Positions 8,734 through 60,125 of a stretch of DNA of 64,000 nt are shown here, piece after piece (positions within the stretch are counted from its first letter, which is position 1; the number at the start of each line of letters is the position of its first letter). Under the pieces are notes generated by a model. The model had not been told where the DNA came from and did not search any database. It saw only the letters and a list, made by a program, of their open reading frames with translations. The stretch spans positions 54,487 to 118,486 of the forward strand of contig JAZRMX010000026.1 in the NCBI GenBank assembly GCA_045647885.1, in the 5' to 3' direction. The position numbers were made by a program, and so were the translations under genes. This DNA comes from Bacteroidaceae bacterium (GTDB lineage: Bacteria > Bacteroidota > Bacteroidia > Bacteroidales > Bacteroidaceae).

Positions 8734-8767
8734 GAGCATTTATTAACCATTAAAAACTTAAAACATT

Positions 8768-32035: not shown

Positions 32036-32503
32036 ATGAAGAATGAAGATTTTATGCGTCAAGCTATAGAGCTTGCGGTGGAGAATGTGAAATGTGGTGG
32101 TGGCCCTTTCGGCGCAGTTATTGTGCGCGACGGCAAGGTGGTGGCAACCGGTGTAAACAGGGTTACTGCAAACAACGACCCCACGGCACACGCCGAGGTG
32201 TCGGCCATCAGGGCTGCTTGTACAAAACTGGGAACTTTCGACTTGAGCGGTTGTGTAATTTATACCTCGTGTGAGCCTTGTCCCATGTGCTTGGGTGCCA
32301 TATACTGGGCGCATATAGATAAGATATATTATGGTGCCAACCAGCACGACGCGGCTGCTGTGAATTTCGACGACTCTTTCATTTATCGTGAATTAGAGCT
32401 TAAACCAGCCGACAGGAATAAGCCGGTGGAAAATATATTGCACGACGAGGCTCTTGCGCCATTTAATCTGTGGCGCGAAAAAGATGATAAGATAGCATAT
32501 TGA
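32036..32503 (+). CDS. guaD: guanine deaminase (CDA-fold, GuaD-type)
   Basis: 'GGPFGAVIV', 'DPTAHAEV', 'SCEPCPMCLGAIYWA' and 'FDDSFIY'. Nearly collinear with the B. subtilis GuaD sequence as I recall it. Confidence 0.8.
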   Translation: MKNEDFMRQAIELAVENVKCGGGPFGAVIVRDGKVVATGVNRVTANNDPTAHAEVSAIRAACTKLGTFDLSGCVIYTSCEPCPMCLGAIYWAHIDKIYYGANQHDAAAVNFDDSFIYRELELKPADRNKPVENILHDEALAPFNLWREKDDKIAY

Positions 32504-32553
32504 AATAAGCAGAAAGAGGTTGCCTTCAACGGCAACCTCTTTCTGCTTATTTC
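32503..32553. terminator. bidirectional 21-bp hairpin terminator
   Basis: AAATAAGCAGAAAGAGGTTGCC-ttcaac-GGCAACCTCTTTCTGCTTATTT. Overlaps the ybaN stop. Confidence 0.85.
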
Positions 32554-32906
32554 AATGTCTTGTAGTGCAGTATGTGTATGCTTATGCCTGTTGCAAGTAG
32601 GATAAAAAATATTTTCAGCCACCAGCTGTCGGCTATTGCAAAGGTGCAGTAGAGTAAAGTACCCCACACCAGGCTCACCGATATTATTTTTACTCTTAAA
32701 GGTATTGCTCTGTTCTCGCGGAAATTGCGGATGTAGGGACCTAAATGAGGGTGCGCAAGCAGCCAATTATATAATTCTTGTGAGCTGTGGAAGTACAATG
32801 CCGCTGCCAAAAGAAGAAAAGGGGTAGTGGGCAGTAATGGTAGAAAAATACCTATTACACCCAGCGCGAGCGATACTGTTCCTAAAAATGCAAGAAAATA
32901 CTTCAT
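32547..32906 (-). CDS. ybaN: DUF454 inner-membrane protein YbaN
   Basis: 'GIFLPLLPTTPFLLLAAALY' and 'LRVKIISV'; 119 aa. Confidence 0.85.
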   Translation of the reverse strand: MKYFLAFLGTVSLALGVIGIFLPLLPTTPFLLLAAALYFHSSQELYNWLLAHPHLGPYIRNFRENRAIPLRVKIISVSLVWGTLLYCTFAIADSWWLKIFFILLATGISIHILHYKTLK

Positions 32907-33561: not shown

Positions 33562-33575
33562 TTTTAAATATTTAT

Positions 33576-33618
33576 AAAGCAATAGAGGACTAACCCACGG
33601 TTAGTCCTCTATTGCTTT
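33576..33618. terminator. bidirectional hairpin; left edge of the phage-like block
   Basis: AAAGCAATAGAGGACTAACC-cacg-GTTAGTCCTCTATTGCTTT. Overlaps the terminase stop. Confidence 0.8.
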
Positions 33619-35698
33619 ATATGCTTGCCTCGCTCACAATTCGTGTGCGACCCTTCTTCTTTTCATTGTTTGCTATGCGATGAGGGAGAGGGTGGTTGTA
33701 GCATGCCCAAACAAGTATGGCTGTTGCCATAACGCGGTCGTCGTGGTTCCCTTCTACGGCTCCCATTTCTTTGCCGTTCTCTTTGAGCTCATAGAGGTCG
33801 AGCTCGTATGTTGTCTGCAGGCAGCGTTCTATATACAGCCCGTCGCGCAGGGCCTTTATAAGGAAATTTATTACCATCGGCTTGGTGGAGCTGTTGGTGT
33901 GAAAGCCCCACCGGCGTGGGCGGCCTTGCTTTATCTCGAGCTGTGAGGTGCGGCTGTAGAGGTTATGGTATTTGCCGGCTATTTCGTTTAGTATGTATTC
34001 GAAATTGTCGCCTTCTGTGCCTTCGGTCTCCAGCGTGTTGGCTTCAATTATAAGCAGGGCGTTGTCGTAGGCGCGGGCTATTTCCACCGCTTTCCAGGCT
34101 AGTTTGTCGTGTTCTATGTGTCCGTGCCAGCAGGCTGCAATTTCGGGTACTCCGCCGTCGAGCATTGCAAGGCGGTCGGCTACTAGTATGCAGGAGTAGT
34201 CGGCTTTGTCGCTCACGCCGCCCACGTCCACGGTTACAATGTAACGGTCGCGCAGGTTTTGTTCCTTGTCGGGCATAAGCCACACCCATAGGGAATTTTC
34301 GTTGCAGTTTTCTCCTGGTGCAGCAGGGCGGAATTCGGTGCGCTCGTGGCTGCGTCCTTGCGCATCGGTTGTGTACCCGCAGCTTACTATGTCGCCTTTG
34401 AAGGGTGGTGGCACGCAAGTGCGGCGCGTTTCATTGACGTATGAGAGGCGGAAGACGCGGTGTCCCGTGCTCTGGAAGGCTTCGGCGGCGGTGGAGGGGA
34501 ATTCCGAGAAGAGTCGCCACTCCTCTGGCATTTCGCGGCGTTTGTCACGGTACCAGGCTATAGCTTCAAGGGTTGCTCCAAGGCCGAACAGTTGCTTTTC
34601 GTAGTCGTTAAGAGAGTCTATGAAACTGCTGTATTCGCTTTGCTTTATGGGCTTGCTGTAGAGGTCTATGCTGTACCACGGGATGAATACCGGGGTAAAG
34701 TTGTTCCTGTTCTCAACTGCGTCTATCCAGGTGCGGTGGAAAAAGTTACCCACGCCTTTTGCTGTGGATTCAAGCACCTTCATCGTGTAAGGACCTGCGG
34801 CAATGGAGCCGAAGATGGATTGTACAAGGTCTTCGGGTTTGCGTCCTTGTGTCTCCTTCCACAAACCCACTTCGGTGAGGTGTGCCATACTGATGTCTTC
34901 GCTTCGCAGTGAGTCGGGCTTTTGTGAGGAACCGAGAGAGTAACGGCTGTTGCTCCAGCTTATCACGCGCGTTTTTTGTGCCCCTTGATAGGGCGAAGTG
35001 GTTATCTTCTTTCCGCCTGTGGCCCAGGTGGGGTAGCGGTTGATGACCTTTGCAAGCATTCCGGCTACGATGGAGGATTGTTTCTCTATGTCGCCGCAGA
35101 TAACGCTGTTCCAGTTGCGCTTGTGTACGAGTTGTATCCACAACATATAGAGCTGTGTGAGGGTGCTGCCTCCCCATTGACGGGCTTTGCACAGAATTAT
35201 GTCTATGGGCTTGCCTGCGAGTCGGAGTTTTTCCATAGCTTCGAGGTATTGGCGTTGCGCGCGGTTAAGGGTAAATGGAATGTCGCGCCCTTTACCTTTG
35301 TCTGATATCGTGGTCATACTCTTTGCCCAGTATTCAAAATCGTGCTTTATGCGAGTGAGGCAGAAGTCGAGCCACAAGGCCAATATCTGTCGGCTTGTGG
35401 CCTGTGTGCCCAATATCTCTTCTATGTATCGGCTGGCTCCAAGTTCTATTATCCTGCTTGTCTTCTCATCCTCAAGCATTGCGAGGGGGAGATTGATGCT
35501 TTCGAGTGGGAAGCCCTCTATTTCCACCTTCTTGCGCGGGAGTGATGTGGAGCCTTCGCCAGTGATGGGATTATAAACGGCCGAGATTTTTCCCAGCCGT
35601 TCAATGTTCTCTTTTATTATGTTCTCTTTTTTCACGTTATATGCCTGCAAGGTCGGTGGCGCGGCGGCGCACCGGTGTGTTGTTGTAGAATTTTGCAA
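33617..35698 (-). CDS. terminase large subunit
   Basis: ATPase region 'ILCKARQWGGSTLTQ' with downstream 'VICGD'. C-terminal RNase-H-like nuclease acidic motifs 'IVTVDVGGVSDKAD', 'LIIEANT' and 'GNHDDRVMA'. ATG 35698 overlaps the upstream gene by 62 nt. GTG 35635 is an alternative start, one nt after that gene's stop. Confidence 0.8.
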   Translation of the reverse strand: MQNSTTTHRCAAAPPTLQAYNVKKENIIKENIERLGKISAVYNPITGEGSTSLPRKKVEIEGFPLESINLPLAMLEDEKTSRIIELGASRYIEEILGTQATSRQILALWLDFCLTRIKHDFEYWAKSMTTISDKGKGRDIPFTLNRAQRQYLEAMEKLRLAGKPIDIILCKARQWGGSTLTQLYMLWIQLVHKRNWNSVICGDIEKQSSIVAGMLAKVINRYPTWATGGKKITTSPYQGAQKTRVISWSNSRYSLGSSQKPDSLRSEDISMAHLTEVGLWKETQGRKPEDLVQSIFGSIAAGPYTMKVLESTAKGVGNFFHRTWIDAVENRNNFTPVFIPWYSIDLYSKPIKQSEYSSFIDSLNDYEKQLFGLGATLEAIAWYRDKRREMPEEWRLFSEFPSTAAEAFQSTGHRVFRLSYVNETRRTCVPPPFKGDIVSCGYTTDAQGRSHERTEFRPAAPGENCNENSLWVWLMPDKEQNLRDRYIVTVDVGGVSDKADYSCILVADRLAMLDGGVPEIAACWHGHIEHDKLAWKAVEIARAYDNALLIIEANTLETEGTEGDNFEYILNEIAGKYHNLYSRTSQLEIKQGRPRRWGFHTNSSTKPMVINFLIKALRDGLYIERCLQTTYELDLYELKENGKEMGAVEGNHDDRVMATAILVWACYNHPLPHRIANNEKKKGRTRIVSEASI

Positions 35699-36113
35699 AT
35701 ATCTGCCGTATGTTCTCGGAAAGGCTATGCTTTGTTGCCATTTGCGGCTGCGCCAGCATTGGCTGGCGCAGTAAAAGCCATTGCATTATTATTTCGTTTG
35801 CAAGATAGTCTGTTATTGCCTGCTTGAGCGACGGCAACAGGTGCGAACGTTTTTCATTGGTGGTTTCAAAGGTTATTTGAATCTCCTCCTCTGTAATGTT
35901 GTATGATATATTTGAAAAACGGAGTGCAACAGCAGATGTGAGTTCATTCAATACTCTTTGTGTGAACATAACGAACAATTCTTTTTCATTGGTGCTGCTT
36001 TGCAGTATATCGGCGTCGGCATCTTTACGTTTGGCCGCTTCGCCCAGATAATGGTTTCTTAAATCTATCTGCTGTTGCAACTCGTTTCTCTTTATATGTA
36101 TGCAGTTTGTCAT
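35637..36113 (-). CDS. phage-block paralog family member A (158 aa), possibly head-completion/connector-like
   Basis: Aligns by eye with 36142..36627 and 45126..45542. Shared features are an N-terminal 'YLGEAAK'-type segment, 'D/E-rich ... L...A..EL.N' and C-terminal 'DYLANEIIMQWLL'. Confidence 0.65.
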   Translation of the reverse strand: MTNCIHIKRNELQQQIDLRNHYLGEAAKRKDADADILQSSTNEKELFVMFTQRVLNELTSAVALRFSNISYNITEEEIQITFETTNEKRSHLLPSLKQAITDYLANEIIMQWLLLRQPMLAQPQMATKHSLSENIRQIFAKFYNNTPVRRRATDLAGI

Positions 36114-36141
36114 TTTATTACAGTTCTGTTTGTGTGTTTCT

Positions 36142-36627
36142 TCAGAGTATTATTTCAGGTCTTTGGCGCATAGTCAGGAACTCGCGCAATTGCAGGGCTG
36201 CAGCCTGTGCTTCACTTGCCGGTATAGCCGCCTCTTCGGGGCGGTGCTGCAGCAACCATTGTTGCAGAGCGCGTTTCACAGCATATGTTTCCATACATTT
36301 CTCTATACGTGTTAGTATAGCCTGGGGAAACGTATCTGGTGCAGAGAGTGTGAAAAGGTATATCTTATAATTGTCTTTTGTATTGCTCTCTGGTATTTCT
36401 TCAATGTTGCATATAGCCAAATAGCGTGATATAAGGTTGCCCAGTTCTGTTATAGCGTTCCCTATGTGGTCGTTGAGCTGGGTACTGTCGTCGCTCGATG
36501 CTTGCATCTTCGCAGCGAGCCTTTCGGGTACTCCAATCTCCTTGCGTGCTTCGCCGGTGTAGTAGGTGTAAATAAGTATCCGCTGTTCAATGTTCCTGTG
36601 CAGTACTTTAATGTTTATCTGTTTCAT
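36142..36627 (-). CDS. phage-block paralog family member B (161 aa)
   Basis: 'YYTGEARK', 'SSDDSTQLNDHIGNAITELGNLIS' and 'ETYAVKRALQQWLL'. Confidence 0.65.
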   Translation of the reverse strand: MKQINIKVLHRNIEQRILIYTYYTGEARKEIGVPERLAAKMQASSDDSTQLNDHIGNAITELGNLISRYLAICNIEEIPESNTKDNYKIYLFTLSAPDTFPQAILTRIEKCMETYAVKRALQQWLLQHRPEEAAIPASEAQAAALQLREFLTMRQRPEIIL

Positions 36628-36716
36628 ACTCTTTTTTGTGCGAAAATAGTTCTGTTAGTCCACTTGCAGGTTGTTATTCCGACACTTTGTTAAGTTTTGT
36701 GGCTTTTTTACATATA

Positions 36717-37136
36717 TTATATGGCGCTTACCTTGCGTTCACGCAGGGTCTTGTATATAATGCCTCTGAAGGTCTCTTCGTCGAGATAAAAGGAAGGTGC
36801 TGGCTCTTCTATGATTTTTTCGAGTATCACGTAGCGGTAGTGGCTACTTGTCTCTTTTATGCGTTTGAGATACCTGTTGTAAATCTCTCTGTACATCTCC
36901 ATCTTGTTCTTGTTTACAAGAGGAAGACGTTTCTTGCGTGTCATTAACGAAATGTAGCGTCGGGCATTTTCAAAGGTTACATAAAAACGTGGTGCATTCT
37001 TTTTTACTGCCATTTCTATGATTTCGTTCTGTGTGGCAAGCGGGTTGCTAGTCCTCACCTCCTTCATTGTTTCGAAGAATGCGCTTATGACATCCTTCTT
37101 ACGCATATTGCGTACCGATTTGTTTTCTTTATCCAT
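36717..37136 (-). CDS. basic protein (139 aa), possibly DNA-binding (small-terminase or regulator candidate)
   Basis: First gene of the minus-strand operon leading to the terminase. Lys/Arg-rich. The start is set at ATG 37136 (MDKENK). Function is guessed from position only. Confidence 0.5.
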   Translation of the reverse strand: MDKENKSVRNMRKKDVISAFFETMKEVRTSNPLATQNEIIEMAVKKNAPRFYVTFENARRYISLMTRKKRLPLVNKNKMEMYREIYNRYLKRIKETSSHYRYVILEKIIEEPAPSFYLDEETFRGIIYKTLRERKVSAI

Positions 37137-37451
37137 ATTTGTGTGCTTTTGTGCCCGCAAAATTAATAGCCAAAATAGGCTAAAGTGTTGCTTTTTTAAC
37201 ACTTTGTTTCTGCTTTCTTTGTAAGGTGTTGGTAATCAAAAGTATGCTGTGCGTGTTTTTCTTTGTCTAGCGCGCGTTTCCTTGTTGAATATAAATGCGG
37301 CCGCCTGCAGTTGCTTCCCTTCTGGTGGGTGGTAAGCCGTTTTTGGCAATTCTGCAACCCGTGATTGGTGTTTTCGCAACCTTGTCGGGAGGTTTTGATA
37401 TTTCCTTTGCCGTCGAAAAAAGACACATAAACATTTATAAACATTTTTTGT

Positions 37452-38240
37452 ATGAAAGAGAATTTTAAAAATGAAGTGCAGCAGCCCTTTGATTTCAATG
37501 TGGGCGATGCACAATTGTCTGCAGCGGGGCTGCAGGATGGTGTACAGCCCGGGCAGCCGTCATTGTCTGTCCTTGAGGCAGGCCTTAAGAGAATCTTTGG
37601 TGAGGATTTCGATCTTTACGACCAGGCTTCGCAGGAGGCTCTTGTGGAACATCTGCGTGTGAACCGCGAACAGAATGAGCATCTTGCCCAGGCGCTTGAG
37701 CGCGACCCTCGTCTGGCACAGATGATGGTTGATGTGATCGACGGCAAACGTAATGCCCACTCGGCAATGGCGCGTTATTTCGGCAGCTCTATGCTGAATT
37801 TCAACGAGGGTAGTCCGGAGTATGAGGAGATGCTGCAAGCCGACGAGGAACGTCGTAACGAGGTGGTGCGTGCCGCTGCCGAGCGTAAGGAGTATGAGGG
37901 TAACCTCGATGCAAGCCGTGCCGTGATAGAGAGATTCTGCAGTGAACGTGGCTACGACCCTGTGACATTTATGGGCGATGTGTGGGATAAGTTGGTGATG
38001 CCCATTCTCTCTGGTAACTACACTTATGATGTGTGTACGGCTCTTGAGCACGCAATAAATTATGAGCAGGATATTGAGGATGCTTTTGCTGCCGGAGACA
38101 TAAAAGGACGCAACACCAACATACAGCGTATGAAGGAGGACTTTGGCGACGGTCTTCCCAAAGGTATGAGCAGTGCCGCCCCCGATTCTTCAATGAAACG
38201 TCGTCGTAACTCCCTTATAGAGGAGGCACTAAAGGCCTGA
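37452..38240 (+). CDS. scaffolding-like protein (acidic, helical, 262 aa)
   Basis: Glu/Asp/Arg-rich predicted helices ('EEMLQADEERRNEVVRAAAERKEYEGNLDASRAVIE'). Lies immediately upstream of the capsid-like gene. The positional argument is the main support. Confidence 0.5.
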   Translation: MKENFKNEVQQPFDFNVGDAQLSAAGLQDGVQPGQPSLSVLEAGLKRIFGEDFDLYDQASQEALVEHLRVNREQNEHLAQALERDPRLAQMMVDVIDGKRNAHSAMARYFGSSMLNFNEGSPEYEEMLQADEERRNEVVRAAAERKEYEGNLDASRAVIERFCSERGYDPVTFMGDVWDKLVMPILSGNYTYDVCTALEHAINYEQDIEDAFAAGDIKGRNTNIQRMKEDFGDGLPKGMSSAAPDSSMKRRRNSLIEEALKA

Positions 38241-38279
38241 TACTTTTATTTATTAACTTATTTATAACTTTTTTTTAAA

Positions 38280-39902
38280 ATGAAGAGAATTTTTGTTTTT
38301 CTCAAGGAGAATCCTTTGTTTGTTCTCCTTTCTTTAGTGAGTGTGGTTGCGGCATTTTTTGCCGATGAACAGGTTGCATTGTCATTGGCTATGGCAACTG
38401 TGGCGGCTCCCGGTAATACAAAAGCATCGCGAGGTATTGCAGGATTGCCCACCCAGGGCTTGGGCGATGCAACAACGGTTTCTAATGCGTCGGAGTTGAG
38501 CCCCGGTCTTATCGATGCCGATATTGATGAGCAGATTGTGAGCATTGCGAGCGATGAGAGCATCATTGACACCATTAAGCGAAAAATCCGTCGTCAGGTT
38601 CCTGTAACATCTTTCGAGGTGGACCATTACCTTATTGATGACAAGCGTTCAAAGGCCTATACCAACGTAACTTACACCGGTATTGGTGCAACACGTGCCG
38701 AGATTCCTTTCTCCACAACCGGCGAAAGAAAGATTTTCCAGGAGTATTTTACTGCTATTTGTAAGGGTGTGAACGGTTACGACTCTACCGGACAGATTGA
38801 GATGCCCGGTGTGGATCTTATGCTCTTCTTTGTGGGCAAGAACAGCACTACCGAGGCTCCCATAGCAATGGCCGTGAACGGCCCCAAGACAAACGCAACC
38901 GACGATTATTGTACCGTTCCCACCATACCTGCCGGTACCGAGGTGATATTGCTCTCTTCGGCAGCCTATGAGACACAGAAGTTCATTGCTCCCAGCACCA
39001 TTGTGCCTGTGCCCGAACGTATGTACTTGCAGAAACAGCTTTGCAATAATATTGTGAGTGATTACTTTGCGGCACAGAAGAAACGCATACAGTTCAACAA
39101 ATCGCAAATAGCCGAGGCTATCTTGCGTCAGTTCCGTCTCGAGAGCTGCCGCACAGCCTGGGTGGGACAGCCCGGTAAATTCAAGGTGCAGGCAATGGAT
39201 GCGGCTATGGGTTATCAGTGGGATTACTTCAGCAAGGGTATTCGCTGGCAGTTCAAGCGTCAGTACGACCTCTCGTCGAAGATTACTTTTGCCGACCTCT
39301 TAAACCTGTCGATGGTGAAGTTTACAGGATTCAATTGTACCAAGAAAGCTATCTGGCTGCTGGGTAAGCAGTTGCTTAACGATATCCAGAAAATAGACCT
39401 CACGCTGCATAAGAATATAAGTGTGGCAAGCAGCAAGACTTTCGGTATTGAGTGTACACGCATCCACACTGTATTTGGTGACATAGACCTCATACACGAC
39501 CCCACATTGGATGCTCTTGGCTACTCTAATTGCGGTGGTCTTATCGATGCCAACGGCCTTGTGCGTTACTATATGAAGAACGAGGATTCAAAGACCGAGA
39601 ATGTAGACGGAGAGGAGGCAAGCCGTCAGGTTGTGATGACCATAGACTGCCTGTGTCTCAAAGGTTACAGCCACATCTGGGTCAATGGCTCGGCTGCCGA
39701 GAGCGACATACCCGGTACATCGCGAGTGATAAGTGCCTCGTTGCTCCCCGATGCTCCCAAAACCAATGACGTGGTGGTGCTTACTGCCGATGTTATGCAT
39801 ATGGTAAATGGTGTGCAGAAATTGTGGTTTGCTGCCGGTACTGTGGTTACATATAACGGTTCTACCTGGGTGGAGTATACAGGTGAGATTATAGCAGCTT
39901 AA
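38280..39902 (+). CDS. major capsid protein candidate (HK97-fold type)
   Basis: 'SELSPGLIDADIDEQIVSIASDESIIDTIKRKIRRQVPVTSFEVDHYLIDD' resembles the conserved N-arm/P-domain start of Bacteroidota-phage capsid proteins (pattern 'I-D-x-x-I-V-x-I-x-P ... T-P-[IL]-D ... Y-Y', from memory). ATG 38391 (MATVAAPG) is an alternative start. Confidence 0.6.
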   Translation: MKRIFVFLKENPLFVLLSLVSVVAAFFADEQVALSLAMATVAAPGNTKASRGIAGLPTQGLGDATTVSNASELSPGLIDADIDEQIVSIASDESIIDTIKRKIRRQVPVTSFEVDHYLIDDKRSKAYTNVTYTGIGATRAEIPFSTTGERKIFQEYFTAICKGVNGYDSTGQIEMPGVDLMLFFVGKNSTTEAPIAMAVNGPKTNATDDYCTVPTIPAGTEVILLSSAAYETQKFIAPSTIVPVPERMYLQKQLCNNIVSDYFAAQKKRIQFNKSQIAEAILRQFRLESCRTAWVGQPGKFKVQAMDAAMGYQWDYFSKGIRWQFKRQYDLSSKITFADLLNLSMVKFTGFNCTKKAIWLLGKQLLNDIQKIDLTLHKNISVASSKTFGIECTRIHTVFGDIDLIHDPTLDALGYSNCGGLIDANGLVRYYMKNEDSKTENVDGEEASRQVVMTIDCLCLKGYSHIWVNGSAAESDIPGTSRVISASLLPDAPKTNDVVVLTADVMHMVNGVQKLWFAAGTVVTYNGSTWVEYTGEIIAA

Positions 39903-40020
39903 AGTTTTATTTATTTATATCAACGGAGTTGGCTAAAAAGGCTCTTTTTATTCAATCCAAAACAGAGAGGATGGCTCAAAAAAGGCTTTGAGTCATCCTC
40001 GTTAAAACAAAAAAAGAATT

Positions 40021-40446
40021 ATGAAGAACAGAATTACATACGAGATTCACGGACAGGTTGAAAGGAACAGTTTCTTTAGAATGGGAAAGGCTTTGATAAG
40101 AATAGAATTTACTGGTGGCATGATTAATTCTACCGGTGTCTATCCGGCGCAATACACAACCGACAATCCTATGTATCAGCAGGCAATTGAGAACAGCGAT
40201 GCTTTCCGCCGTGGTGAGATTAAGCGTGGCAGGGTGGTTTCCCTGGACGAAGAGGTGGCAAACAGTGTTGACGAAGGCGAAGAGGCTGGCGAGAAAAACT
40301 CTTTTGTGGAAGTTGTGAACTTGCAGCAGGCACGCGCCGTGCTTATGGCTGAACCTTACAACTGCACCCTTTCGGAGCTGCAGAATAAGAGTGCAGTGAA
40401 GGCTGCTGCCGAACAGAAAGGCATATCTTTCCCCAATTGGTTATGA
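40021..40446 (+). CDS. phage-block structural accessory protein (141 aa), unknown
   Basis: Clean ORF directly after the capsid-like gene. Its stop overlaps the next start (ATGA at 40443-40446). Confidence 0.6.
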   Translation: MKNRITYEIHGQVERNSFFRMGKALIRIEFTGGMINSTGVYPAQYTTDNPMYQQAIENSDAFRRGEIKRGRVVSLDEEVANSVDEGEEAGEKNSFVEVVNLQQARAVLMAEPYNCTLSELQNKSAVKAAAEQKGISFPNWL

Positions 40447-41093
40447 TTCCCACACAGTATTTGATAGAAAAGGTTCTGGCAATATTGAACGAGCCTTACC
40501 ACGAGAACTCCATAACCCTTTTGAGCGAAGATACACGCTCCTTGCACGACACCATTCTGGAACTGTTGCCCGACGCGGTGCTCTTTGTACAGAACAACAA
40601 GGTCTATGGTACTTTGAATCCAAAGGTATATAATGTGCCTGAAGGTGCAATTACCGATAACGGCGACGGCAGCGGTTCCGTGCTTCTGCCAAGCGATTTC
40701 GTGAATCTGCTTGAAATGCGTCTTGACGGTTGGGAGAGGCCCTGTACCGTGCTTGCTCCTTCGGGTTCCCCCATTGCTCTTGCGCAAGGCAACATATACA
40801 CACGTGGTGGGTGCAGCAAGCCTGTGTGCGTAGATGCCGTGAACGGTGCCGGTGCGAGGATTGTGGAGTATTACTCTTTGCCAAAGGGGAAGAACCCGGT
40901 TGTCAAGAACTTTGTTTACGAGGCTCTCTATGAGCCGCAGGCTGGTTTGTCTTGCAACGATGGAAATCCTCTTGTTTGTGCCGTAGCATATCAATGTGCT
41001 GGACTTTTGTATAATGTTTTTGAAAGAGCCAACGCTGCCGCTTCCTTTATGGCTCTTGCTCTTTCTATGTGTAAAAACGGTAATAAAACCTGA
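40443..41093 (+). CDS. phage-block structural protein (216 aa), unknown
   Basis: ATGA coupling with the upstream gene. 'LLPSDFVNLLEMRLDGWERPCTVL' resembles the 'LP.DF.RL....W.RPV' motif I associate with phage head/neck proteins. Tentative. Confidence 0.6.
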   Translation: MIPTQYLIEKVLAILNEPYHENSITLLSEDTRSLHDTILELLPDAVLFVQNNKVYGTLNPKVYNVPEGAITDNGDGSGSVLLPSDFVNLLEMRLDGWERPCTVLAPSGSPIALAQGNIYTRGGCSKPVCVDAVNGAGARIVEYYSLPKGKNPVVKNFVYEALYEPQAGLSCNDGNPLVCAVAYQCAGLLYNVFERANAAASFMALALSMCKNGNKT

Positions 41094-41098
41094 AAGTT

Positions 41099-41380
41099 AT
41101 GGCTGTAAACAGTTTGAATTTTTCTCTTAATGGGAATTATTGGGAAAGCGAAACGTTGAAGTGTTCGGGTGGTGATCTCAGGGTTAGAGTGCACAAGAAA
41201 GGCCCTTGTCCGGTGGATCTGCTTGTGAGCATAGATGGCGTGGAGGAGTATATAAAGTATGATGACTTCGGACTCGACGACCTGAAGAGCGAGGTAACCA
41301 TCGAGAGACTTATGACCGGGCAGTTCATTAAATTTCGTTCCCGTAGTGAGTTTACTCTCATAAAGTATATGGAGCAGTGA
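41099..41380 (+). CDS. small phage-block protein (93 aa), unknown
   Basis: Starts 5 nt after the previous stop. Looks beta-rich. Confidence 0.5.
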   Translation: MAVNSLNFSLNGNYWESETLKCSGGDLRVRVHKKGPCPVDLLVSIDGVEEYIKYDDFGLDDLKSEVTIERLMTGQFIKFRSRSEFTLIKYMEQ

Positions 41381-41384
41381 TTTT

Positions 41385-41858
41385 ATGGATACCCTGAAGT
41401 TTGTTTTTGCATCGCTGCTGGCCAATGTCGCAGGGTTGTTGTTCCCCATAAAGAACGATATTTACGGGTTGGTGCTGTTGTTCTCTCTGAATTTTGTTGT
41501 CGGCATGTTTGCCGACCTGAGTAACCACCGCGACTGGAGTTTCAGAAAGGCATTCTGTTTTTTCCGCGATGCTGCCGTCTATTTTGTAATGGTAGCCTCC
41601 ATGTACCTTCTTGGGCATCTCAAAGGTGAGGAAGAGGCTGCTGTACATTGCGTCTCCTTTATGATATATGTGGCTATATATTTTTATGGTACCAATATAT
41701 TGCGCAATGCCCGTATGCTTACACAGGAGCACAGCACTCTGTTCAAGGTGCTCGATTTCTTGTATTATGTGTTCAGTTTCAAGGTTATTGGAAAGTGGGG
41801 GTGCTTGAAGAATTACATTGAATCATATGAAAAGGAGAGGAATAGTATGGCTGTGTAG
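41385..41858 (+). CDS. holin-like 4-TM membrane protein
   Basis: Four hydrophobic segments. 'FVVGMFADL' and the C-terminal 'YGTNILRNARML' resemble Phage_holin_4_1-type proteins ('D..TG' ... 'E..SILEN'). Tentative. Confidence 0.5.
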   Translation: MDTLKFVFASLLANVAGLLFPIKNDIYGLVLLFSLNFVVGMFADLSNHRDWSFRKAFCFFRDAAVYFVMVASMYLLGHLKGEEEAAVHCVSFMIYVAIYFYGTNILRNARMLTQEHSTLFKVLDFLYYVFSFKVIGKWGCLKNYIESYEKERNSMAV

Positions 41859-42222
41859 CCTTTTGTTCTTACTTGCGGCCTGTGCGCCGTGTGGCAGGAA
41901 CGAGGTGTTGCATAGCTTGCAAACCCGGCAATCGGGGAGCGTGGTGCGGGACAGCATCTACTTGCGCGACAGTGTTTTTGTAGCTCGCAGGGCCGACACG
42001 GTCTTTTACGAGAAGTCAAGAATATTATATCGCGACAGGTGGCGCGTTGATACTTTCATTGCACGCGATACACTTTTTAGGGAAAAGACCGTAACCGTGG
42101 AGAAGGTTGTTACAAAGTACCCCTCGCCGTGGCTTCTGCTTTCCGTAGTTATGCTTTTTTATGTATGGCATAAAGGATGGCTGCGGTGGTTGTGGGTGTT
42201 GTTGAAGAATTTGATTAAATAG
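41827..42222 (+). CDS. lipobox + C-terminal TM protein (unimolecular-spanin-like architecture)
   Basis: 'LFLLAACAPCG' lipoprotein signal, a soluble Arg-rich middle part, and C-terminal TM 'PWLLLSVVMLFYVW'. Overlaps the holin-like gene by 32 nt. Confidence 0.5.
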   Translation: MKRRGIVWLCSLLFLLAACAPCGRNEVLHSLQTRQSGSVVRDSIYLRDSVFVARRADTVFYEKSRILYRDRWRVDTFIARDTLFREKTVTVEKVVTKYPSPWLLLSVVMLFYVWHKGWLRWLWVLLKNLIK

Positions 42223-42227
42223 TATTT

Positions 42228-45119
42228 ATGCAGAAAAGTTTTTCATTCAAAGGTATTACAAGACATAGTGATGACCTCCTTGTCAGTGACGGGGAGTGTA
42301 TGGAACTTGTGAATTTAAGGGTGAAGGATGGCTGTCTTGAACCCTTGCCGTCGGAGTATAACGAAACGGAACTGGAGTACTGCTATGAGAAGGCCTATCG
42401 CCACCCGGTGTCGGAGATGTTGCTGTGTGTTGAGTACAGGAATCAGGGCCGTGTACATTTTTACGACAAGGATTTGAAACTTGTGAAGAGCGAGGCTGGG
42501 GAGGATGAACTTTTTCCCGACCTCTGCAATATAGTGCGCATTGAGTTTGTGGGTAGTCTCGTTTGCTGTTTCTCTGAGAGTACAACATATTATTTGGTGT
42601 ACGACTCGGGGGAATATCGTTGGTTGGGTGTGAGACCCTTCCTTCCCGAACTCTCGTTCAGCTATGACTCTATTGTTGTGGAGAGTGCAACAGACGATGA
42701 GTATCTTGCCGGAGTATCGTTGCGTAAGGAGGATGCCCCTACGCGATGGGGTAATGTGTCGAAGGGGTATTTCGACCATTGCCTCTCTATGCTGCACAGC
42801 CGTGGCTACTATGTCGACAGGGCTCTCTTCCGTTATGCTCTTCGCCTGTTCGATGGTAATTATTTCTGTTATTCGCCCATCTATTATGTCGACGATGACA
42901 ACGCGGTGGGCGAGCTTGCCAGAGATGCAAAGAATTTCTATTCAAAGCCACTTGAGTCCTCGGCTTCGTCGAGCAGATATGTGGCTCGCGTGCAGGGCTT
43001 CCTGCCAACATTCCATTTGAAGAATCTCGACCTTTCGGCGTGGAGTAATATAGTAGTGGGTGTAGACATCTTTACTACGGGTTCCATATATGGGCACAAA
43101 GTGGTTACATCAAACGAGGAGTTTTCGATAAGGAACAATGTGCGGTATTCAAAGGACGATGGCTTTGAACGTTATGTGGAGAAGGGTGGTGAAGAGATTA
43201 TGAACGACGTGCAGAATGCTGCAACGTTCTACAAAATTGCCGAGTTCAATGCTCAGGGTGTTCTTGTCGATAGCGTGAAGGATGTCTCTTTGTCAAGTCT
43301 GGCATTATGCGACTCACTTCCCGACGAGGCGGGTTCGCAGACCGACCGTTCTGCTTCATATACACTTTTCTTCAATGGACGTCTGCATTTGGCCGGCGTG
43401 AAGGAGTCTTTTATGAAAGGGTATGGCCCGCGTGCCCATTTGCCTGCAGGTGTTACTCCCACAAAGGCCGATTATGCTTTGGTGGTCACACGTATAAAGA
43501 CTACTGCGGGTGTGGCAGTCGTGAAACGTGAGTATATAAGGGACTATACTTTGGGTCTTAAGGACGGTGCTTTGTGGATGACTCCTTATATTATGTATCC
43601 CGATTCGCGAGCTTTTGAGATAATGTTCACCATCACTATGGGCGATGTAACCTATCGCAGAACATTCCCCTTGAAACAGCATCGTATGCTTAATCTCGCA
43701 TCCTATGTAAATCCCGGAGGAAGCAGGCTCACAGTCTCTCTTGAATGTCATCTCACGGTCGGGACAAGGCCATCTTCTTATTCGGTCGAGGATATTCTGG
43801 CCTTCTTCTCCAATACTCCCGGTGTATATGAAATCAAATATACATCAACTGGACAATGGTGTTATGGCGACCAGCCGTTTGTATCGAATAAAAGTGCCAG
43901 CATCAATAATCCGTACCGTATAATCGCAACGTTGAACCCACATGTAGGTGATACCATTAAAATAACCATATCAAAGAATGATGATGTGAGCGATGTGAAA
44001 GGTGTCGAGGATATAGCTTTTGATGACTCGTGGGAAATTATAGAGGAAGTGGTGGATGTAGCCGAGGAAAACTGCTGTGAAGTCCGTGGCAATGTGCTGA
44101 AGGTATCGGCCGTTGATAATCCTTTTTGCTTTGCGCCCATAAACACCTATACGCCATCGCAGGGCGATATTCTGGCCATAAGCAGCAATGCTGTTGCGCT
44201 GTCACAAGGGCAGTTCGGCCAATATCCGCTTTATGTCTTTTCCAAAGATGGTGTGTGGGCAATGGAGGGAACAGCTTCGGGTGGTGTAACTTATGCACGC
44301 TCTTATCCTGTTGCACGCGAGCTATGTACCAATGGAAATTCCATCTGTTGCACCGACTCGGGTGTGCTGTTCCTTGGCAAAAGGGGAATTATGCTGCTCC
44401 AGGGAAGTAGCCTTAGCTGCATAACCGATGCCATTGATGCCGAGTCACACTTTATGCAGGGGGTAGACCACGAGAATATTCTCTACAAGATTGCAAGGAT
44501 TACTGAAACGCAATACGCCTTGAGCAGGGAGCCTTTGTCGGATTTCCTCAAGGGAAATGTGGCAATGGGCTATGTTTCGGCCGAGAATGAGGTGTGGGTG
44601 TCCAATAACGACTTCAATTACTCTTATGTCTATTCATTGAGTAATGGCACGTGGACGAAGATTTCAAAAAGTTTTATGTGCTTTGTGAATTCTTATCCAC
44701 ACCAGTTGTATCTGCGTATTGTTGACGATAAAAGTTACATTGCAGTTATTGACAGGGAGAATGCCCTGCGCCACACTTATGTGACACTCTTTACGCGACC
44801 GCAACTTTTGGGAAACAAGTTGCCCAAACGCATTTTGCAGTTTATGCTGCACGCAGCGGTAAGGATTACCGATACTGGCCATGATATTGATTTTTGTGGC
44901 TTGGCCTGTTACCTGTTATGCAGTAACGACGGCGTACATTTTAAATTAGTTGCCGGTGCCGAGAAAAAAAAGGATTTTAATGATATGGTTTTTCCATATT
45001 TCCCAACGCAGGCATACAAGTATTATATAGTTGCCCTGACAGGTTCTGTTGCTCTTGAAAGCCGCATTGTGGATGCTGAAATCTTAATTGAACCGGCTTG
45101 GGAAAACCGTTTACGTTGA
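42228..45119 (+). CDS. large virion-associated protein (963 aa); portal or tail/receptor-binding candidate
   Basis: Longest ORF of the block, with no frameshifts. The N-terminus 'KGITRHSDDLLVSDGECMELVNLRVKDGCLEP' resembles openings of podovirus-type stabilisation/tail proteins, but I cannot assign it. Confidence 0.75.
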   Translation: MQKSFSFKGITRHSDDLLVSDGECMELVNLRVKDGCLEPLPSEYNETELEYCYEKAYRHPVSEMLLCVEYRNQGRVHFYDKDLKLVKSEAGEDELFPDLCNIVRIEFVGSLVCCFSESTTYYLVYDSGEYRWLGVRPFLPELSFSYDSIVVESATDDEYLAGVSLRKEDAPTRWGNVSKGYFDHCLSMLHSRGYYVDRALFRYALRLFDGNYFCYSPIYYVDDDNAVGELARDAKNFYSKPLESSASSSRYVARVQGFLPTFHLKNLDLSAWSNIVVGVDIFTTGSIYGHKVVTSNEEFSIRNNVRYSKDDGFERYVEKGGEEIMNDVQNAATFYKIAEFNAQGVLVDSVKDVSLSSLALCDSLPDEAGSQTDRSASYTLFFNGRLHLAGVKESFMKGYGPRAHLPAGVTPTKADYALVVTRIKTTAGVAVVKREYIRDYTLGLKDGALWMTPYIMYPDSRAFEIMFTITMGDVTYRRTFPLKQHRMLNLASYVNPGGSRLTVSLECHLTVGTRPSSYSVEDILAFFSNTPGVYEIKYTSTGQWCYGDQPFVSNKSASINNPYRIIATLNPHVGDTIKITISKNDDVSDVKGVEDIAFDDSWEIIEEVVDVAEENCCEVRGNVLKVSAVDNPFCFAPINTYTPSQGDILAISSNAVALSQGQFGQYPLYVFSKDGVWAMEGTASGGVTYARSYPVARELCTNGNSICCTDSGVLFLGKRGIMLLQGSSLSCITDAIDAESHFMQGVDHENILYKIARITETQYALSREPLSDFLKGNVAMGYVSAENEVWVSNNDFNYSYVYSLSNGTWTKISKSFMCFVNSYPHQLYLRIVDDKSYIAVIDRENALRHTYVTLFTRPQLLGNKLPKRILQFMLHAAVRITDTGHDIDFCGLACYLLCSNDGVHFKLVAGAEKKKDFNDMVFPYFPTQAYKYYIVALTGSVALESRIVDAEILIEPAWENRLR

Positions 45120-45125
45120 TTGATT

Positions 45126-45542
45126 ATGGAAATAAAAATTGATAAAAAAGAACTTTTGACCGACTTGCATAGAATGTCGGCGCATTTGGGAATGAAACTT
45201 GGAGCGCCTGAACTTGTTGCTTCCACCGTGGACGATGAGGATAAGATTGAATTGCTGTTACAAGCCTCTTTTGCCGAACTGCTCAACATCCTTTCGCCCT
45301 ATGCAACAATAGAACAGATTGCCGATGAGGCTGTGTTTACTATGAATATGCCTGCGAACTGGAAAAAGGGACAGGCCAATGCTCTTGTTCTCCTTTCTTG
45401 TGATTACCTGCGCCATTCGCTATTGGCGCGTTGGCTCGATTCTGTTAAAAGTGACAATGCCATGCTTTATCGTACATTGAACAGGGAAACAGCCGATGCT
45501 ATAGTGCATATATTGTCGTTACGGGAAAAACCGACCCCTTAG
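45126..45542 (+). CDS. phage-block paralog family member C (138 aa)
   Basis: 'TVDDEDKIELLLQASFAELLNILS' and 'CDYLRHSLLARWLD' align with members A and B. The ATG lies 7 nt after the 963-aa ORF stop. Confidence 0.65.
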   Translation: MEIKIDKKELLTDLHRMSAHLGMKLGAPELVASTVDDEDKIELLLQASFAELLNILSPYATIEQIADEAVFTMNMPANWKKGQANALVLLSCDYLRHSLLARWLDSVKSDNAMLYRTLNRETADAIVHILSLREKPTP

Positions 45543-45551
45543 TGGGGTGAT

Positions 45552-45592
45552 AAAAACAGAGGTGAAGGTCAAAAACCTTCACCTCTGTTTTT
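45552..45592. terminator. bidirectional terminator closing the structural operon
   Basis: AAAAACAGAGGTGAAGG-tcaaaaa-CCTTCACCTCTGTTTTT. Confidence 0.85.
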
Positions 45593-45803
45593 ATCCCATT
45601 ACAATGTCTTTTGAGTAGCGTCTGTTTGTGTCACGTATAATCTTTTTCTGGTTTTTGCCTATGTATATGCTGCACGCTGCAAAAATTATGAAAGAGACGA
45701 CAAATGCCATTGTGGGCAGGAACTCGTCCAATATGCTTTCGCAGCAACCTATCATCAGTGCCAGGCTTATTAATTGTATGCTAATGAGTGTGTTTGCTTT
45801 CAT
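45591..45803 (-). CDS. small membrane protein (70 aa), hypothetical
   Basis: Two hydrophobic segments. Lies downstream of 45815..46204 on the same strand. Confidence 0.45.
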   Translation of the reverse strand: MKANTLISIQLISLALMIGCCESILDEFLPTMAFVVSFIIFAACSIYIGKNQKKIIRDTNRRYSKDIVMG

Positions 45804-45814
45804 AGTGTGTATAT

Positions 45815-46204
45815 CTATTTTTCTGTTTTATCGAATGCCCAGTAAATCAATCTGCTGCTACCGGTGTCGCTCTCTTTGGTCTTTAGCGTTGCTTGGCTTA
45901 TGACTTGCCTTTTGCGATAAAGGACAACCCTGCCAATAGTGCATTCGTCGCCGCTCTCCCCGCCAATGGATTTTATTTCCATTTTATATCTGTTTAGTTT
46001 CAGAATCTTTGCCCTCGCTGCGAGAAAATTCTCAACAAAAGGCTCCTTGCGGAATCTGTCATATATCTGATAGCTCTCGGTAAGGTGGCTGGTCCATTCT
46101 TTATTGCGCCGTAACGCATAGAATAGCGACTCAAACCATTCCATAAATTTCTCGGCAACGTAATCGCACCATTGCCTTGTTTTCCAAATCTCTCTACTTC
46201 TCAT
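45815..46204 (-). CDS. hypothetical protein (129 aa), first gene divergent from the repressor
   Basis: Clean ORF. Its position matches a cro/antirepressor-type early gene, but no HTH motif was recognised. Confidence 0.55.
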   Translation of the reverse strand: MRSREIWKTRQWCDYVAEKFMEWFESLFYALRRNKEWTSHLTESYQIYDRFRKEPFVENFLAARAKILKLNRYKMEIKSIGGESGDECTIGRVVLYRKRQVISQATLKTKESDTGSSRLIYWAFDKTEK

Positions 46205-46454
46205 AATTAAATCTGTTGTTATATCTTTTGTGTTTTCTTCTATTTTTATTATGTTTGTCGCGGATTTTATTGAAATAGCCTTTTTTAGCTGTATATTCTG
46301 CTGTTTTTCCCGTTTTTTTGGTAAAATAGCTGTTTATGGCTGCAAATATAATCTTATATTCGTTAATATTTGTTGCGAAATTAACCCAATTAGCAAAAAA
46401 TGGCTATTTTAAAATGATTCTAAATAATGTGCAGAAACAAAGAATAGCAGAAAG

Positions 46455-47087
46455 ATGGAAGGTAGTATCAAGGAGAGAATATTGAGTGTTTTCAAGTTCA
46501 AGAATATGAATGTAAACAGGGCAAGCCGTCTGCTCGGGATTCCCCAGCGTACACTCAACAGGCAGGTCAACGAGGATGGCAAGGTGGGTATGGAACTGGT
46601 GTATTCATTGCTAAATGTATTTACCGATATTTCCCCTTCGTGGTTGCTGTTGGGGCAGGGCGAAATGTTTGTCGATGCCGACGTTATGTTGGCTCCTTCG
46701 GGCGCTGCGCCTTTTTACAGCAACCTACCGGTTACAGCAGGGCATTACGATGCCTTTGATCCTGCAAGAGAGAAACCTACCGGGTATATCTCAATGCCAG
46801 GTCTCTCGGCTCAGTTTTATTTTCCTGTTTTTGGAACATCTATGGAGCCCGAGATTTATTCGGGCGATATAGTGGGCGTGAACAGGGTTGATTCCTTGCG
46901 CGACATTGACCCCGACAAGATATATATGATTGTCACCAATGAGTCGCGTATGATAAAGCGTTGCCACTCCGACGAGAATGACGACTCTGTAATGTGGTGC
47001 GTCTCTCCAAACTATCCATCGTTCAAGATAAATAAAAAGGATATTTGTGCAATGTTTCACGTAGTGAACAGAATAGAAAGGCTTTAG
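46455..47087 (+). CDS. LexA/CI-type repressor (XRE-like HTH + S24 peptidase)
   Basis: HTH 'NVNRASRLLGIPQRTLNRQVN'. S24 catalytic region 'FGTSMEPEIYSGDIVGV' (Ser) and 'RMIKRC' (Lys). Confidence 0.8.
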   Translation: MEGSIKERILSVFKFKNMNVNRASRLLGIPQRTLNRQVNEDGKVGMELVYSLLNVFTDISPSWLLLGQGEMFVDADVMLAPSGAAPFYSNLPVTAGHYDAFDPAREKPTGYISMPGLSAQFYFPVFGTSMEPEIYSGDIVGVNRVDSLRDIDPDKIYMIVTNESRMIKRCHSDENDDSVMWCVSPNYPSFKINKKDICAMFHVVNRIERL

Positions 47088-47103
47088 TCTTTCTATTTTT
47101 TTT
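47072..47103 (+). terminator. intrinsic terminator after the repressor gene; right edge of the block
   Basis: AATAGAAAG-gctttagt-CTTTCTATT followed by a T-run. Confidence 0.75.
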
Positions 47104-53262: not shown

Positions 53263-53265
53263 GCA

Positions 53266-54099: not shown

Positions 54100-54124
54100 A
54101 AGAATGTAAATTGAAATTAAAGAT

Positions 54125-55879: not shown

Positions 55880-55898
55880 CCAATAAAAAAGTAAGATT

Positions 55899-57218: not shown

Positions 57219-57235
57219 TTGAATGAGATAACGAA

Positions 57236-57834: not shown

Positions 57835-57838
<4 letters not shown>
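57236..57838 (+). CDS. ntpD: V-type ATPase subunit D
   Basis: 200-aa helical protein. 'TLPIIKNKESALR' resembles the subunit D N-terminus. Operon position supports the call. Confidence 0.8.

Positions 57839-60125
<2,287 letters not shown>

Follow-up and report, generated by a model that had tools for sequence, protein, structure and literature searches.

To our knowledge, only a handful of independent domestications of phages into DNA-transfer particles are known. FpGTA, the gene transfer agent (GTA) of Faecalibacterium prausnitzii (Bacillota), is encoded by a single 10.5-kb operon which includes the portal gene, and its packaging of 8.4-8.9-kb host fragments was shown experimentally (PMC12946183). 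Known GTA lineages are listed in a 2026 study of capsid-packaged gut DNA, and none of those listed belongs to Bacteroidota. No GTA described for this phylum, which is dominant in the gut, was found in the literature searched, in agreement with the initial annotation of the DNA analysed here, which knew of no such system in Bacteroidales. Three temperate Bacteroides phages, BKO1-TP3, BF1-TP2 and BS-TP4, have been isolated (PMC12694917). The present analysis concerns 64,000 nucleotides of a Bacteroidaceae bacterium (GCA_045647885.1, contig JAZRMX010000026.1, positions 54,487 to 118,486), called the window hereafter. The window holds a 13.5-kb block of about 16 densely packed open reading frames (ORFs) in two divergent arms, with host genes on either side. 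With moderate confidence, we regard the block as one half of a vertically inherited, domesticated, two-module podovirus particle system which appears GTA-like.

The leftward arm of the block encodes a 139-amino acid (aa) basic protein, two paralogues of about 160 aa and a protein of 620-693 aa. The rightward arm encodes, in order, a 262-aa acidic protein, proteins of 540, 141, 216 and 93 aa, a protein with four transmembrane (TM) segments, a lipoprotein, a 963-aa protein and the third paralogue of 138 aa. On its 3' side two small leftward ORFs are followed by the gene of a repressor with a helix-turn-helix (HTH) and an S24 domain. The ORFs and coordinates agreed with the initial annotation, including an ATGA overlap at 40443-40446 and gaps of 4-6 nt between the small ORFs; all positions are collected in Table 1. 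That annotation had portrayed the block as capsid and terminase genes without a tail. The picture fails, as a podovirus adaptor and nozzle are predicted within the block. Nor is the block the entire system, a second module with a portal and a giant LPD23 protein having been found in relatives.

The tail proteins were recognised from predicted structures. Foldseek placed the AlphaFold model of the 216-aa protein with adaptor or ring chains of GP4, Carin-1, crAss001, Pa223, T7 and KP32 (tail tubular protein A) at E values from 5.5e-6 to 2e-2, and a profile search of the adaptor family against PDB gave nothing significant. The model of the 963-aa protein is nearly all-beta and not portal-like. 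It matched the crAss001 muzzle best (1e-15), followed by tail chains of cyanophage A4, SU10, T7, P22 gp10 and Sf6; a single-sequence PDB search with the protein gave no match, and its family counts 3,090 representatives at 50% identity. The idea that this ORF could be the missing portal is excluded by the all-beta model together with the nozzle matches. As modelled, the two folds are those of a podovirus tail core. Structure searches of the block ORFs, which the initial annotation had proposed for finding the portal, adaptor and tail parts, found the adaptor and the nozzle, with the portal lying outside the block in relatives.

The head and packaging genes could be followed by profile comparison. 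The family profile of the 693-aa ORF matched T4 gp17 at 8.8e-8, with the invariant KARQWGGST aligned on the Walker A segment and NHDD on the nuclease motif. A single-sequence PDB search with it gave no match. These alignments, with the PHROG assignment, confirm the earlier call of a large terminase subunit (TerL) with predicted ATPase and nuclease domains. Its start codon is uncertain, as an ATG at 35479 would give a 620-aa form; the longer form is likely because a conserved N-terminal segment lies upstream of this ATG. TerL identity across species is 74-87%. The 139-aa gene adjoins the TerL gene directly upstream in the phages of IMG/VR and in BKO1-TP3, and by this position its product is a candidate small terminase or DNA-binding regulator. 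Of the three paralogues, the 158-aa protein is kept in nearly all loci, and a profile search of their family against PDB gave no significant match.

The position and composition of the 262-aa protein, rightly described before as encoded by an acidic ORF upstream of the capsid gene, make it a scaffold candidate. For the 540-aa protein, the HK97-type capsid fold named in the initial annotation is weakly indicated by the place of its gene, which is syntenic with phage capsid genes, and by two matches, one to Pfam SU10_MCP (E 0.006, under the cut-off) and one, with a profile, to the VP1 podophage capsid (E 0.007). Its homologues in the TP phages carry the annotation DUF5309. Identity of the capsid across relatives is 72-96%, and an exact look-up of the window protein returned no record. 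The scaffold and capsid genes are 76% identical to each other over the 34 nt in which their start codons lie (37433-37466 and 38260-38293), with the pattern ATTTATAA...ATGAA(A)GAGAATTTT, which suggests a common context of translation initiation. The 141-aa protein could be a head accessory or connector.

Lysis-like functions are suggested for two further genes of the rightward arm. The four-TM protein, previously called holin-like, matches a Pfam holin family just under the cut-off. The lipoprotein, with its C-terminal TM segment, resembles a unimolecular spanin in sequence, and a homologue in a prophage-like locus (L077, described below) sits after an endolysin gene. NCBIfam gave no match for the block proteins, and Pfam gave almost none.

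No portal gene is present in the block, which ends exactly at the 3' end of the TerL gene, where phages carry the portal. A second module with a P22-type portal and an LPD23 protein of 1,500-1,700 aa was found in four of the four relatives' genomes examined, either directly 3' of the repressor gene or beyond the host F-type ATP synthase operon, and in all four the portal (PF16510) is on the same contig as the block. When the portal of the closest phage (L085) was used as query, thousands of homologues were returned, and many of these are 60-64% identical and lie on the long Bacteroidaceae contigs which bear the block. The split form is well seen in NODE_112 (102,673 bp), whose capsid is 94% identical to that of the window. 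There nadC, cdd, DUF454 and DUF4488 genes precede module 1, which has TerL and S24 at its ends. Between the modules lie the F-ATP synthase operon and a DUF4369/thioredoxin-like gene. Module 2 has first an 81-aa ORF, which is oppositely oriented, then two ORFs (174 and 152 aa), the giant LPD23 gene (1,715 aa), the portal gene (654 aa; PF16510 at 5.8e-41) and an ORF of 140 aa. The right flank is formed by ligA, dapA, a DUF2400 gene and a malic enzyme gene. The split layout was found also in the genomes of L016 and L004, and the ATP synthase operon parts the modules in more than 20 species. In the contiguous form (GCA_045654645.1), module 2 follows the repressor gene directly and the stretch between the TerL and portal ends measures 20,485 bp; ligA/dapA again form the flank, and the junctions show no repeat of at least 10 bp. 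Portal identity between species is 76-88%, similar to the 77-90% of the adjacent LigA. PHROGs gave nothing useful for the small module-2 proteins. That both modules belong to one gene set of about 20 kb is part of the domesticated-particle reading and is held with the same moderate confidence.

Homology between the window and its closest relatives stops at 47078-47080, just past the repressor gene; a second module, if this genome has one, would lie more than 17 kb from the block. The junction S24-MORN-YhcH-GlgB recurs in three independent assemblies (ENA ERZ27298989, ERZ27299068 and ERZ27298684), so it is not a misassembly. A third arrangement was observed in L002/L003 (ENA TONG22-1 scaffold_44), where the scaffold gene is directly preceded by the S24 gene and the ATP synthase operon, the module-2 genes come immediately after a nozzle gene of 866 aa, and the terminase arm is not within 10 kb. 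In the L004 genome (L111 12329-21980) the portal gene is followed by the gene of a 288-aa tyrosine integrase and by unrelated genes (alpha-amylase, WG beta repeat). The same position is occupied by ligA in two other species, and the integrase with the unrelated genes probably represents an insertion in its own right.

A search of 50,697 phage records yielded no relatives other than the three temperate Bacteroides phages named above (64-68 kb, 25-36% identity). IMG/VR added 26 contigs of 30-74 kb with capsids 45-61% identical. The gene order in these phages is giant LPD23/DarB-like protein, portal, TerL with the 139-aa gene on the opposite strand, scaffold, capsid, 141-aa protein and adaptor. 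BKO1-TP3 has in addition an integrase, RecT, a helicase, a replication initiator, methyltransferases, an endolysin and the reverse transcriptase of a diversity-generating retroelement (DGR) with a 2,638-aa protein. As a joint part of the reading given above, and no more firmly than it, the set is taken to descend from a temperate podovirus of 45-74 kb of the BKO1-TP3 type, the block being its head, tail-core and regulator module. From the ancestral phage set the integrase, the replication genes, the DGR and the endolysin have been lost. Two annotations of BKO1-TP3 (L001, PQ571269.1) were found to differ from the homologies seen here. Its gp51 (37872-39986), annotated as 'tail spike', is the TerL homologue with about 40% identity over 700 aa, and gp9 (4510-4722, 70 aa) is annotated as 'Portal protein', the P22-type portal homologue being gp54 of 656 aa.

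The distribution of the set was followed in one genome per GTDB species. Seventy-eight loci were found, about 76 of them with the compact set, in species-level Bacteroidaceae genomes. Nearly all the carriers are metagenome-assembled genomes (MAGs) named 'Bacteroidaceae bacterium' from the hindguts of ruminants and other animals, with capsid identity of 76-94%. TerL, two paralogues, the 139-aa gene, scaffold, capsid, the 141-aa gene and adaptor form an invariant core; the 93-aa ORF and the third paralogue are variable. Two exceptions are prophage-like. One, L082, is in a Paludibacteraceae MAG and has the portal next door. The other, L077, shares its MAG, RGIG7365 (JAFYRW01), with the compact locus L079. 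It is more complete, its capsid is 72% identical, and it carries genes for an endolysin, an anti-repressor and a fibre-like protein of 608 aa; it is possibly a helper or target phage.

Across the loci the flanking genes are all housekeeping: murB, a metallo-beta-lactamase (MBL)-fold gene, an HlyIII gene, a beta-eliminating lyase gene and the ATP synthase operon, with ligA, dapA and nadC as other neighbours, and no integrase. The right flank, S24 followed by ATP synthase, is found in more than 20 species, and the left flank differs between subclades. No integrase, attachment (att) site or replication gene lies within 10 kb of the block in dozens of orthologous loci. The linkage has been reshuffled repeatedly, which implies that the genes need no contiguity, and this is unexpected for a genome that must be packaged. 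Some local rearrangements were also observed. L028, L031 and L051 have a gene of about 1,000 aa with RHS repeats directly beside the 139-aa gene; the terminase and two paralogues were not detected in the stretch examined, and the remainder of the module is intact. In L011 (17430-19838) an 802-aa BspA-type leucine-rich-repeat gene is inserted between the third paralogue and the 129-aa gene, and related leucine-rich-repeat genes flank the block in other species.

The long ORFs, seen to be uninterrupted in the window, are intact across the loci as well (TerL in 60 of 60, capsid in 77 of 77, nozzle in 58 of 59, scaffold in 74 of 76). The median ratio of nonsynonymous to synonymous substitution (dN/dS) is 0.053 for capsid, 0.078 for TerL, 0.084 for S24, 0.092 for the holin-like gene, 0.12 for nozzle and 0.15-0.47 for other block genes, and 0.046, 0.055 and 0.14 for the host genes atpD, MBL-fold gene and murB; all these values are approximate, synonymous divergence being close to saturation (median dS 1.2-1.4, usable pairs). 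Capsid distances follow those of murB and the MBL-fold gene with Pearson coefficients of 0.95-0.99 (8-9 loci). Distances of capsid, TerL, nozzle, S24 and scaffold all correlate with those of atpD (Mantel p<0.0005), the latter being restricted to ATP synthase beta subunits. The comparison of synteny and selection which the initial annotation had proposed thus places the set among housekeeping genes in about 76 species, with host-like dN/dS and no att sites. As judged from these divergence patterns, the gene set is shown to have been retained vertically in the long term under selection, along with the chromosome as a clade of uncultured hindgut Bacteroidaceae diversified.

Regulation of the set is suggested by its repressor and by two conserved motifs. 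The divergent HTH and S24 repressor noticed before is borne out by Pfam and PHROG (Table 1), and all 42 sequences compared have its predicted catalytic dyad, Ser129 and Lys168, and the cleavage site Ala95-Gly96. Its identity to CI-type repressors of Porphyromonas and Riemerella phages is 23-28%, and at E 0.01 it matched no family of NCBIfam, LexA among them. The 129-aa protein encoded divergently from it is Cro- or antirepressor-like by position. The candidate operator TAGC-N7-GGCT, often palindromic as TAGCC-N6-GGCTA, has five matches in the window, all five inside the block. Two such sites about 64 bp apart recur at the repressor promoter in relatives, where 120 of 162 occurrences (1.57 Mb of loci) fall in the two small promoter regions, an enrichment of about 50-fold or more. 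Presence of the operator upstream of the scaffold gene was not significantly related to S24 adjacency (p=0.08). Binding of the S24 protein to the palindrome and its RecA-dependent cleavage are predicted from these features.

The other motif, CAACCT-N14-24-TYYTTTG, is a Bacteroidota-type -33/-7 promoter with an extended upstream element. Sixty of 84 loci have it in front of the scaffold/capsid operon, and 10 of 12 have it in front of the portal operon. In 3.5 Mb it occurs 82 times, 70 of them at these two promoters, and the other 12 are mostly the same sites with mis-called gene starts. As this promoter motif is common to both separated modules, they look like one regulon. Neither the operator nor the promoter motif occurs in the phage relatives. 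The operator motif was looked for also at the module-2 promoter and is not there, the region being occupied by a different conserved inverted repeat, GGTTGCTG...CAGCAACC. This repeat, in full GGTTGCTG(T/A)AATGACA ... TGTCATT(A/T)CAGCAACC, lies between the 81-aa ORF and the portal operon (L114 3688-3831; L117 4434-4576; L037 18243-18384), and its right arm extends into the promoter motif common to the modules. The repeat could serve the 81-aa protein, which is highly conserved (dN/dS about 0.02), as an operator, or it could form a hairpin in RNA.

Table 1. Positions of genes and sequence features of the block in the window (strand: +, forward; -, reverse;., not stranded; pI, isoelectric point)
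Feature	Position	Strand	Evidence or remark
Hairpin, perfect 23-nt arms	33573..33621	.	Between convergent DUF4488 and terminase genes; bidirectional terminator; left end of conserved block
Large terminase subunit (TerL), predicted	33617..35698	-	PHROG phrog_2 8e-21
158-aa protein, paralogue 1 of phrog_19255-type family	35637..36113	-	Clusters with 161-aa and 140-aa ORFs
161-aa protein, paralogue 2 of phrog_19255-type family	36142..36627	-	PHROG phrog_19255 1.5e-7
139-aa basic protein, pI ~10	36717..37136	-	PHROG phrog_27246 6e-14
Palindrome TAGCCAAAATAGGCTA, candidate operator at leftward promoter	37167..37182	.	Half-sites conserved, spacer varies, 28 loci
Promoter motif CAACCT-N20-TCCTTTG	37377..37409	+	Upstream of scaffold/capsid operon
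262-aa acidic protein, pI 4.67, scaffold candidate	37452..38240	+	PHROG phrog_22323; same position in phage relatives
Major capsid protein (putative), 540 aa	38280..39902	+	PHROG phrog_26635 1.2e-20
141-aa protein, invariant core	40021..40446	+	In all loci and phage relatives
Portal-tail adaptor (predicted), T7 gp11 / tail tubular protein A type, 216 aa	40443..41093	+	AlphaFold pLDDT 88.9
93-aa protein, variably present	41099..41380	+	
157-aa four-TM holin-like protein	41385..41858	+	Pfam Phage_holin_4_1 3.3e-4, under cut-off; PHROG phrog_15037
Lipoprotein, lipobox LLAAC and C-terminal TM	41827..42222	+	From sequence
Podovirus tail nozzle / hub protein (predicted), 963 aa	42228..45119	+	AlphaFold pLDDT 91.2, pTM 0.84
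138-aa protein, paralogue 3 of phrog_19255-type family	45126..45542	+	
Terminator hairpin, perfect 21-bp arms	45549..45595	.	End of rightward structural operon
70-aa conserved small ORF	45591..45803	-	Cluster c18, 10 loci
129-aa basic protein	45815..46204	-	Divergent from repressor gene; co-occurs with S24 in 40 loci
Two TAGC-N7-GGCT sites, candidate operators	46327-46341, 46391-46405	.	Divergent promoter region of repressor
CI/LexA-type HTH and S24 self-cleaving repressor, 210 aa	46455..47087	+	Pfam Peptidase_S24 2e-8; PHROG phrog_4 9.5e-18
Terminator hairpin with T-run	47070..47099	+	Right block end

The block is not set off from the chromosome by composition, its GC content being 0.465 against 0.456 in the host and its tetranucleotide distance being inside the range of host chunks, as the lack of visible contrast noted earlier had suggested. 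Its chromosomal neighbours were verified by Pfam as DUF454/YbaN and DUF4488 on the left and MORN, YhcH/DUF386 and GlgB-like on the right. The bounding hairpins of the initial annotation do exist, but as boundaries of an element they were rejected. Comparable perfect hairpins are found between two host genes (32500-32555) and within the block (45549-45595), which indicates ordinary terminators of convergent genes. Flanking direct repeats were considered as att sites and rejected, the matches being at chance level only and within coding sequence. No tRNA and no att-like repeat was found at the block, and Pfam and PHROGs searches detected no recombinase, replication gene or endolysin in the block, all of which agrees with the earlier reading of the sequence. 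Rfam had no match in the window. Elsewhere in the window, a V-type ATPase operon (52672-60125; A of 584 aa, B of 439 aa, and D, I and c subunits) lies 5.5 kb to the right of the block, and the F-type operon, the neighbour of the block in relatives, is absent from the window. At 6936-9082 three small paralogous ORFs (120, 104 and 104 aa) are interleaved with a 308-aa ORF; Pfam gave no match for the 120-aa and 308-aa ORFs.

From these parts we infer a possible course of induction, assembly, packaging and delivery. DNA damage would lead the S24 repressor to cleave itself at Ala-Gly, and the promoters with TAGCC-N6-GGCTA sites would be derepressed. The two structural operons, with their common CAACCT...TYYTTTG promoter, would then fire together though physically apart. 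Short-tailed capsids would assemble with portal, adaptor and nozzle, and the terminase would fill them with cellular (chromosomal) DNA, because no excised, replicating genome competes. Lysis assisted by the holin and the spanin would free the particles, which would inject DNA and the giant LPD23 protein into related cells. This protein, whose homologues in the phage relatives are annotated as DarB-like, plausibly counters restriction and would so protect the DNA in the recipient. Stated in its narrowest form, the proposal is a true GTA of Bacteroidota, SOS-inducible, chromosomally fixed, encoded at two loci and with a crAss/P22-like tail, which would pack host DNA into large heads and deliver it with the giant anti-restriction protein between related hindgut Bacteroidaceae; this form is tentative. 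Of the genomic features of GTAs, the set has the lack of replication and integration genes, vertical inheritance with purifying selection, and location at more than one chromosomal locus. The last is given by the portal module, which in relatives is set apart by the ATP synthase operon; at least one species has the two modules side by side. A head too small for its own genes, also a GTA feature, is probably not found here.

Several points weigh against a domesticated particle system. It is known here from genes alone, and the comparison genomes are all MAGs. The capsid kin come from phages of 45-74 kb, so the head may hold more DNA than the set of about 20 kb, unlike the heads of classical GTAs. 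No receptor-binding fibre, spike or needle partner and no endolysin was identified in the set, and no module-2 gene (portal, LPD23 giant) is present in the 64-kb window. The cassette of holin, lipoprotein and nozzle is missing at the locus in one subclade of 10 species, and the pair of 129-aa protein and S24 is missing beside the block in about 13 species. Ranked distances correlate weakly with those of atpD (Spearman 0.05-0.35), so that some horizontal exchange is possible. Finally, purifying selection is expected in active phages too.

The initial annotation had left the choice between a domesticated module and a capsid-forming satellite. The housekeeping loci, intact ORFs and host-like dN/dS fit domestication far better than a mobile satellite. 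By what defines satellites, the set has no integrase, att site or excision and no replication module, and it has tail genes. An immobile ('grounded') satellite or anti-phage system is the strongest of the alternatives and has to be reckoned with, though its probability is low. On infection by a related TP-type phage, or on induction of one, the host-made capsid, scaffold, terminase, portal, adaptor and nozzle would co-assemble with parts of the phage or sequester them, spoiling virions or filling them with host DNA and so protecting the population. Such a decoy role is plausible because related prophages share the hosts, with L079 and L077 held together in RGIG7365 as an example, and because a helper phage could supply the missing fibres, endolysin and replication genes; the CI-type repressor could also answer a phage anti-repressor. 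A pure decoy, however, would have no need of the full head, tail core and giant protein which are kept here, and in phages and conjugative elements giant proteins of the LPD23 kind accompany the DNA that is transferred. The set showed no defence-type effector, although no PADLOC search was made. Capsid-forming satellites known to us so far all have integrase and replication genes, and the set carries neither.

Less probable still is a selfish element without integrase, which would be packaged in situ by a headful mechanism and would enter the chromosome of a related recipient by homologous recombination through its conserved flanks. Packaging would start within the element, so that a single head would take in neighbouring housekeeping DNA as well. 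The presumed capsid capacity, taken from the relatives of 45-74 kb, exceeds the 20.5-kb element, and the flanks are highly conserved operons (ATP synthase, ligA, murB) suited to such an entry. The weak fine-scale co-phylogeny with atpD and the left flanks which differ between species also point this way. Against this, the divergence of capsid and portal follows that of adjacent host genes. The presumed distance of more than 17 kb between the modules here and the species-specific rearrangements are better explained by evolution of the chromosome than by repeated re-installation.

A functionless remnant of a decaying cryptic prophage is strongly disfavoured and very improbable. The loss of integrase, replication genes, DGR and endolysin, the varying content of nozzle and repressor genes and the three species with an RHS gene where the terminase and two neighbours normally sit would agree with decay, but the large ORFs are intact despite a median dS of 1.2-1.4, the dN/dS of the main genes is 0.05-0.12 and the regulatory motifs are conserved. 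Least probable of all, and as strongly disfavoured, is an ordinary inducible temperate prophage with overlooked genes, for which the CI-type switch and the structural and lysis-like genes could speak; yet housekeeping genes flank and separate the modules, the real relatives are 45-74 kb long, dozens of loci have no integrase, att site or replication gene within 10 kb, and no complete set for integration, replication, virion and lysis is found in one excisable unit, all of which upholds the first judgement that this is not a normal inducible prophage.

On the best-supported reading, that of a domesticated two-module particle system, what is new about the locus is its origin in a separate domestication of another phage lineage, its occurrence in a phylum new for such systems, its layout as two split modules and a CI-type switch of its own. 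If true, domestication would have occurred independently in a phylum without a known GTA. A clade-wide candidate is provided with a parts list, a predicted trigger and two predicted cis motifs which join separated operons as a regulon, and gene flow in uncultured hindgut Bacteroidaceae may become experimentally tractable. The real phage relatives of 45-74 kb make the set a model of domestication open to comparison. Prophage finders can miss or mislabel such loci.

Compared with known systems, the set would be closest to GTAs in function. With the Bacteroides TP phages and the IMG/VR contigs it has in common TerL homologues (38-70% identity), capsid (25-61%), the 139-aa gene, scaffold, adaptor, the C-terminal region of the nozzle, portal and giant protein, in the same local gene order as in its two modules. 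It differs from these phages in having no integrase, recombination and replication genes, methyltransferases, endolysin or DGR with its target of about 2,600 aa, and in having the two cis motifs. To the podovirus tail cores (crAss001 ring and muzzle, T7 gp11 and gp12, P22 gp4 and gp10) it is alike in the predicted folds of the 216-aa and 963-aa proteins, which match adaptor and nozzle chains; identity is only 7-15%, and TM-scores are about 0.3-0.5 because the domains are arranged differently. Capsid-forming phage-inducible chromosomal islands and other satellites are likewise small, with their own capsid and packaging genes and a repressor switch, but they have an integrase, att sites and a replication module and use helper tails, whereas the present set lacks the first three and has tail-core proteins. 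With RcGTA-type agents (Rhodobacterales) and other GTAs or viriforms it shares phage-derived particle genes without replication and integration. In RcGTA-type GTAs vertical inheritance, purifying selection, more than one locus, lysis genes partial or elsewhere and a plausible SOS link are also found. These have a siphovirus tail with tube and tape measure in place of the podovirus adaptor, nozzle and P22-type portal predicted here, and the present set differs further in its phylum, Bacteroidota, its own CI-type repressor and a head capacity which likely exceeds its gene set. FpGTA (PMC12946183), likened by gene content, is similarly compact, comes from a gut anaerobe, has TerL, scaffold, capsid and portal genes and particles described as podovirus-like, and has no replication genes. 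Its portal is within the operon and its packaging is demonstrated; the present system is known from its gene content, with the portal in a separate module.

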